Part shown: positions 25,562 to 26,138 of the stretch, piece by piece
Numbering within the stretch: the stretch's first letter is position 1
How the letters are laid out: every line of letters starts with the position of its first letter
Virus record (IMG/VR): IMGVR_UViG_2526164690_000052
Length of the DNA: 37,501 bases
Reading direction: 5' to 3' (one strand)
From: a virus
Taxonomy: Duplodnaviria; Heunggongvirae; Uroviricota; Caudoviricetes
The notes under the pieces: model-generated
The model's database searches: none
Told to the model about the DNA's origin: nothing
Seen by the model: only the letters and a program-made list of their open reading frames with translations
Position numbers and translations under genes: made by a program

Positions 25562-26138
25562 TGACATTCAGAATGAGTGAACACTCACGGACCATAAAAA
25601 TTTATAATCTACTGACCGGAACCAATGAGTTTATTGGTGAAGGTGATGCATACATTCCACCTCATACAGGTCTGCCTGCAAACAGTACCGATATTGCCCC
25701 GCCAGATATTCCGGCTGGCTTCGTGGCCGTTTTCAACAGTGATGAGGCATCGTGGCATCTCGTTGAAGACCATCGGGGTAAAACGGTTTATGACGTGGCA
25801 TCAGGGGACTCGTTATTTATTTCTGAACTCGGTCCATTACCGGAAAATGTTACCTGGTTGTCGCCGTATGGAGAGTATCAGAAGTGGAACGGCACATCCT
25901 GGGTGAAAGATGCAGAAGCAGAAAAACTGTTTCGGATAAGGGAGGCGGAAGAAACAAAAACAGCCTGATGCAGGTAGCCAGCGAGCATATTGCGCCACTT
26001 CAGGATGCCGTAGATTTGGATATTGCAACGGAGGAAGAGGCATCGTTACTGGCTGCATGGAAGACATACCGGGTATTGTTGAATCGTGTTAATACAGCGG
26101 TAGCAGCGGATGTTGAGTGGCCAGTCGCCCCACAATAA
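25561..26138 (+). pseudogene. G: Tail fibre assembly chaperone gpG/Tfa, interrupted by a 1-nt frameshift in an A5 run (25956-25960)
   Basis: N-terminal part 25561..25968 ends early; conserved Tfa C-terminus ([45 protein letters not shown]...EWPVAPQ) continues in frame -1 to 26138; combined length about 191 aa is typical for Tfa. Confidence 0.6.

Follow-up and report, generated by a model that had tools for sequence, protein, structure and literature searches.

The question raised by this locus is whether the tail fibre assembly gene (tfa) of a prophage, which appears as two open reading frames in the deposited sequence, is broken in the phage itself or in the record of it. The window, that is, the whole stretch of 37,501 nt that was analysed (IMG/VR record IMGVR_UViG_2526164690_000052), holds a prophage of the P88-like type (Xuanwuvirus, P2-related), which is integrated beside yecA. 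For its split gene, a first-pass annotation made from the letters had set side by side an inactivating mutation of recent date, in keeping with decay of the prophage, an error of sequencing or assembly, and phase variation of fibre assembly at a tract prone to slippage, and had considered programmed frameshifting less likely. The frameshift in the deposited record is a one-base contraction of a homopolymer that is unique to one assembly. Judged from sequence comparison, it is most likely a homopolymer miscall in the draft assembly GCA_000249835.2, in which a run of six A was called as a run of five.

The features that make up the split gene are as follows.

25561–25968, + strand: 5′ part of tfa, an ORF of 135 aa that ends with the TGA at 25966–25968.
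25966–25968, + strand: the premature TGA, a product of the frameshift, which overlaps an ATG at 25968–25970 (TGATG).
25959–26138, + strand: 3′ part of tfa, in the −1 frame, encoding the conserved C-terminal helical (oligomerisation) domain.

The stop of the Tfa frame at 25966–25968 and the A5 run at 25956–25960, both described in the first-pass annotation, are borne out by the sequence and the ORF list; the local codons read GAA GAA ACA AAA ACA GCC TGA TGC AGG. The continuation of the conserved C-terminus in the −1 frame up to 26138 is equally confirmed: this frame (frame 3 of the window) is open over 25884–26138, and the Pfam profile PF02413 (Caudo_TAP) is matched by the N-terminal piece at profile positions 1–73 (E = 3.8e-9) and by the C-terminal piece at positions 74–131 (E = 5.5e-24). 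Since the two pieces fall on consecutive parts of one profile, the locus contains one gene broken by a frameshift, and neither two genes nor a chance similarity. The called genes of the split tfa match PF28596 and PF02413 (Caudo_TAP_N and Caudo_TAP).

Residues 1–133 of the 135-aa product are authentic Tfa, covering the variable N-domain, which binds the fibre, and reaching into the conserved domain, and they are followed by Thr-Ala and the stop. Because this premature stop overlaps an in-frame ATG, gene callers annotate a separate ORF of 56 aa from the ATG at 25968 (EHW17365.1). Tfa is otherwise a single polypeptide of about 175–200 aa with both domains, whereas the window has 135 aa and 56 aa in two frames. 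Restoring one A gives a single 192-aa Tfa, as in relatives; the earlier prediction that an extra A would restore one ORF was correct, and the length of about 191 aa given with it should read 192 aa.

On its two sides, tfa is flanked by the following genes.

23429–25561, + strand: tail fibre gene, P2 gpH-like, 710 aa, with the domains Phage_tail_fib, Phage_fiber_2 and Collar (identical to WP_000108516.1).
26182–26754, − strand: hexapeptide-repeat acetyltransferase (weak Hexapep match), which corresponds in relatives to a serine O-acetyltransferase (WP_000954196.1).

The tfa gene lies directly downstream of the fibre gene, whose stop overlaps the tfa start codon (ATGA at 25561), and the same layout is found in relatives. 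The acetyltransferase gene is cargo between tfa and gpU and is unaffected by the lesion. The slot between tfa and gpU (26139–26910) is a variable cargo or host-range slot, which in some relatives contains a glycosyltransferase gene, and in others a Gin/Cin-like invertible cassette, in which a resolvase-type invertase is accompanied by an additional tfa in inverted orientation and by a different C-terminus for the fibre.

Homologues of tfa are present in 4,376 of the 5,426 complete E. coli genomes, and 3,741 cover at least 80% of the gene. The best matches listed are each annotated as a single CDS for a tail fiber assembly protein; the contrary case, in which Tfa orthologues would normally end at this position and be followed by an independent ORF, does not hold among them. 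The closest copies are 99.8% identical to the gene of the window, one base longer (579 nt, 192 aa), and carry A6. In the alignments, the A6 site reads ACA AAA AAC (Thr-Lys-Asn) in the intact lineage and ATA AAA AAC in the sister tfa allele, and diverged tfa alleles keep A6 too.

Residues 127–191 of the restored protein align with residues 113–174 of the Mu Tfa (5YVQ_B; E = 2.9e-8). In PMC9608196 (citing North et al. 2019), the variable N-terminal domain is described as binding the fibre tip, and the conserved C-terminal helical domain as mediating trimerisation/assembly. Since the break falls at the start of the conserved C-domain, as delimited by the alignment with the Mu protein, the lesion, if real, would be predicted to be inactivating.

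In E. coli DEC8C, exactly this 135-aa product is recorded as EHW17364.1, encoded on contig AIGH01000045.1 of the draft GCA_000249835.2, and among approximately 15 billion proteins it occurs on exactly one contig. The A5 version was found in none of the 219 complete E. coli genomes that contain the 65-mer of the tract, and in no metagenome contig among 241 million metagenome records; a 35-mer search of IMG/VR gave A5 in 0 contigs and A7 in 0 contigs, against A6 in at least 120. All 25 examined contigs that encode the identical 710-aa fibre protein carry the 192-aa tfa, and base-level comparison of six of them gave A6 in each case (6/6), also in the one whose tfa allele differs by more than 40 substitutions. 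The comparison of orthologous Tfa genes, which had been proposed as a check, thus returned A6 throughout the relatives examined and A5 only in DEC8C, and no independent sequence of the element shares the variant of this one assembly.

The 56-aa ORF was found on 54 contigs, and the possibility that this reflects a recurrent frameshift was considered and rejected, as almost all of these contigs come from short-read assembly and start inside tfa. The sole internal split among these 54 contigs belongs to another draft assembly, AIGY01, and is due to a different lesion. Note that Logan short-read assemblies routinely break inside the multi-copy tfa, which leaves many spurious 56-aa “Tfa domain” proteins in the databases.

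The other private differences of the DEC8C assembly bear directly on the origin of the A5 run. Between the window, over its 37,501 nt, and O111:H11 88.0502, the nearest complete genome, there are five differences, namely two single-A deletions in A runs (A6→A5 and A7→A6) and three clustered SNPs. When the DEC8C contig was extended 10 kb into the chromosome and compared with GCA_015160155.1, a T7→T6 contraction was the sole difference over 21,002 nt, and there were no SNPs. In addition to the A5 run of tfa, the private differences are the following.

37194–37199, + strand: second one-base contraction, A6 against A7 in relatives, between ogr and hok.
19247–19262, + strand: cluster of three private substitutions within 16 nt, in a SASA/DUF6645 (nanS-p-like) gene.
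11218–11223 of the extended contig piece: third contraction, T7→T6, in the int–yecA spacer, approximately 220 nt outside the window start; the sole difference from GCA_015160155.1.

The A6 version of the second site, located 23 nt after the ogr stop and upstream of hok, is carried by 0 of 996 genomes. The 67-mer with the SNP cluster is matched by 517 records with 100% identity, at other loci, with a median of six copies per genome; the three substitutions reproduce the paralogous nanS-p copies of these genomes, and the cluster could represent a consensus contaminated by repeat copies, or gene conversion. Over approximately 47.5 kb in total, all three private indels (3/3) are −1 changes in A/T runs of 6–7, and there is no isolated private SNP; runs of five or more account for only 2.7% of the bases of the window. 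In mutation-accumulation studies of E. coli, substitutions outnumber indels roughly tenfold. For this reason, three indels accompanied by no ordinary SNPs would be very unlikely as real divergence, and they are typical of homopolymer under-calling. The sequencing of the DEC collection may have involved 454 pyrosequencing.

The artefact is favoured because the A5 run is a singleton and because the other private differences of DEC8C are A/T-run contractions and a paralogue-like SNP cluster, the assembly thus having further private homopolymer indels in excess over substitutions. The private one-base deletions of the AIGY01 draft speak for it too, as does the rest of the prophage, which is intact and without signs of decay. 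Accordingly, among the options left by the first-pass annotation, the sequencing or assembly error is the one to be preferred, and we infer that a base-calling or consensus error, and not a mutation, is the cause. The real DEC8C prophage would then carry an ordinary 192-aa Tfa, whose variable N-domain would be expected to bind the tip of the fibre specified by the preceding gene, and whose conserved C-terminal helical domain would be expected to drive trimerisation of that fibre.

Several points count against the miscall. Real slippage mutations likewise hit homopolymers and favour the loss of one base, and prophage genes are weakly selected in a lysogen. The SNP cluster, too, could stem from genuine gene conversion. 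The contig AIGY01000034.1 comes from a second draft, which has a WGS accession prefix close to that of DEC8C and may belong to the same collection. Over 20 kb, its related prophage lacks one base at each of two sites in a way seen in this draft alone, at positions 7181 (CC→C) and 9984 (A3→A2) of the piece compared, with indels only being judged, as the closest relative is 97.8% identical. The deletion in tfa (A3→A2) is located 5 nt upstream of the A5 site, in the same A-rich tract, and is absent from 396 genomes; that in the fibre gene (CC→C) lies beside an A6 run, truncates the gene, and is absent from 719 genomes. Such very short runs (A3, C2) are not classic sites of pyrosequencing error, and this counts against the artefact reading.

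Among the alternatives to a miscall, the one that survives best, although it is rather unlikely, is a genuine mutation of the DEC8C prophage, recent and confined to this strain, in which a −1 slippage deletion shortened A6 to A5 and by which Tfa is cut after residue 133. In that case, the C-terminal helical domain would be lost, the fibres would fail to fold or trimerise, and induction would yield P88-like particles without functional fibres. The deposited record does have its lesion at a slippage-prone run, and −1 deletions in homopolymers are, from the general knowledge of replication slippage, a common class of real mutation, but the A5 allele is a singleton, and the private differences of DEC8C over 47.5 kb consist of three homopolymer contractions with no ordinary SNPs. 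The position of the break, exactly at the start of the region aligned with the Mu C-domain, would make such a mutation inactivating, and stf, the neighbouring fibre gene, has a classical real one-base frameshift in Lambda PaPa. At the same time, the AIGY01 draft of neighbouring prefix shows further private losses of single bases in both the fibre gene and tfa, and the prophage is without other decay.

Were the deletion real, some leakage would be conceivable by either of two routes: a tRNA-Lys −1 slip from the AAA at 25957–25959 to that at 25956–25958, recreating the wild-type ...ETKNSLMQ..., or a restart of translation at the TGATG overlap, by which the 56-aa C-domain would be made as a peptide of its own. 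The idea of prophage decay, which had been attached to the inactivating mutation in the first-pass annotation, does not agree with the rest of the 37.5-kb prophage, which is intact and base-for-base identical to copies in more than 100 genomes. Many O26/O111/O103 EHEC genomes hold identical copies of the otherwise intact element.

A further alternative treats the two-ORF layout as functional, the A run being the place where programmed −1 ribosomal frameshifting, or else slippage during transcription, normally joins the ORFs. The feature that draws attention to it is the following.

25939–25945, + strand: Shine-Dalgarno-like AGGGAGG, 10 nt upstream of the A run, coding for Arg-Glu-Ala.

The spacing between this motif and the slip site recalls dnaX, and the authentic protein would result if tRNA-Lys slipped by −1 on A_AAA_A. 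Nevertheless, this explanation is highly improbable, and the doubt about it expressed earlier is upheld. The two-ORF layout occurs in one assembly only, the homologues listed being single ORFs, and this lack of a conserved two-ORF design argues against programmed recoding. The A_AAA_ACA of the window is not an X_XXY_YYZ heptamer, and no stable structure was found downstream of the run (MFE −17.6 kcal/mol, z = +0.71, with 148 of 200 shuffles folding as well), so that the heptamer, the structure, and the conserved two-ORF overlap by which −1 cassettes of the dnaX, IS, and tail-chaperone G-GT types are recognised are all missing from this site. From general knowledge, moreover, an A5 run is too short for efficient transcriptional slippage, and the Shine-Dalgarno-like motif belongs to DNA that is conserved across tfa genes, with GGGAGG in lambda tfa.

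The intact allele has the arrangement AGGGAGG-N10-A_AAA_AAC in phase, with a dnaX/IS1-like look, and lambda has GGGAGG-N10-A8. The A_AAA_AAC of the intact allele is in phase, yet it needs no frameshift, and because there is no downstream structure, the whole arrangement is probably conserved coding sequence. In a wider version of the recoding idea, the AGGGAGG-N10-A_AAA_AAC/A of lambda-type tfa genes could be a dnaX-like recoding signal giving two Tfa isoforms. It is likewise very improbable that A5 is real and the gene partly functional, either by a tRNA-Lys −1 slip promoted by the Shine-Dalgarno-like motif or as a split chaperone composed of the 135-aa N-domain and a reinitiated 56-aa C-domain.

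The weakest proposal, that the A tract is a contingency locus at which slippage switches fibre assembly on and off, has a negligible probability: all that speaks for it is that the lesion sits in a homopolymer and that the AIGY01 lesion lies 5 nt away in the same A-rich tract, but the tract is invariant in length outside the window (A6 in all relatives retrieved, with neither A5 nor A7 elsewhere in the IMG/VR search, no A5 in the 219 complete genomes, and diverged tfa alleles included), and this lack of run-length polymorphism argues against phase variation, as do the shortness of the tract (A6, and A5 in the window), given that tracts that phase-vary are longer and contingency homopolymers typically have at least 8–9 A/T, and the fact that real fibre switching in this phage group employs the resolvase-type invertible cassette in the same slot.

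The call “frameshifted tfa, decaying prophage” for the DEC8C prophage is probably wrong, and the value of the present result is mainly one of quality control. For screening, a sequence of this kind may be compared with its nearest independent relatives, after which it is checked whether the private differences are homopolymer indels only. A real lesion would amount to routine pseudogenisation of the fibre chaperone, private to this strain, which predicts fibre-defective particles and has no wider consequence.

Among known systems, the prophage as a whole is closest to Escherichia phage P88 and the genus Xuanwuvirus (Peduoviridae), with which positions 26905–33755 of the window are collinear at 97% identity, a stretch that takes in gpD and the opposite-strand block from gpU to FI. 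The fibre/tfa/cargo module of P88 differs, whereas the tfa and acetyltransferase genes of the window match JL22 and vB_EcoM-Ro157c2YLVW. In the window, gpU, the tape measure, E′/E, tube (FII), and sheath (FI) genes are located at 26905–32490 on the − strand, opposite to the fibre operon, and gpD is at approximately 32645–33745 on the + strand. The orientation of the tail block in P2 is unlike that of the window, and because of the collinearity with P88, the opposite-strand block is a genus trait of Xuanwuvirus. Its interpretation as a local inversion of the FI-to-U block was rejected, given that it has no flanking inverted repeats and that the arrangement is normal for P88-like phages. Additionally, a yecA-like SEC-C gene, carried as cargo between gpD and ogr, is disrupted by an IS10-type element (annotated as IS4-like ISVsa5) at approximately 34145–36620. 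This element is common to O111:H11 88.0502 and 88-19539, and is missing from the O26 and O103 copies.

The tfa gene itself is nearest to that of lambda (orf-194), with 88% DNA identity over 97% of its length. Lambda tfa likewise stands directly after the fibre gene, and its product has the same Pfam domains and the same local ...REAEETK(N/K)SLMQVASEH..., but it is, like all other members of the family, a single ORF of approximately 190 aa, whereas the copy in the window is split by one missing A. At the corresponding position, lambda has ACA AAA AAA, an A8 run (Lys-Lys), where the lineage of the window has A6 (Lys-Asn). The Tfa of phage Mu (gpU; PDB 5YVQ chain B) has the same modular design (PMC9608196), with a variable N-domain and a conserved C-terminal helical domain; the N-domains of the two proteins are without detectable sequence similarity, and in the window the frameshift parts one module from the other at a point slightly within the conserved region.

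The Lambda PaPa stf (orf-401/orf-314), the one-base frameshift of which is mentioned in PMC9608196 (citing Hendrix and Duda 1992) and is also noted in the annotation of HK630, resembles the window in that a single-base deletion splits a tail-fibre-related gene, within a fibre module of lambdoid or P2 type, into two ORFs. It differs in being a verified real mutation of a laboratory phage, in the fibre gene, while the lesion of the window is in the chaperone gene and is probably not real. The AIGY01 lesions, in their very short runs, are unlike the homopolymer miscalls of flow-based (454/Ion Torrent) and early nanopore sequencing. The DEC8C differences are like these miscalls, with one-base indels in A/T runs, no accompanying substitutions, and apparent frameshifts in otherwise intact genes.
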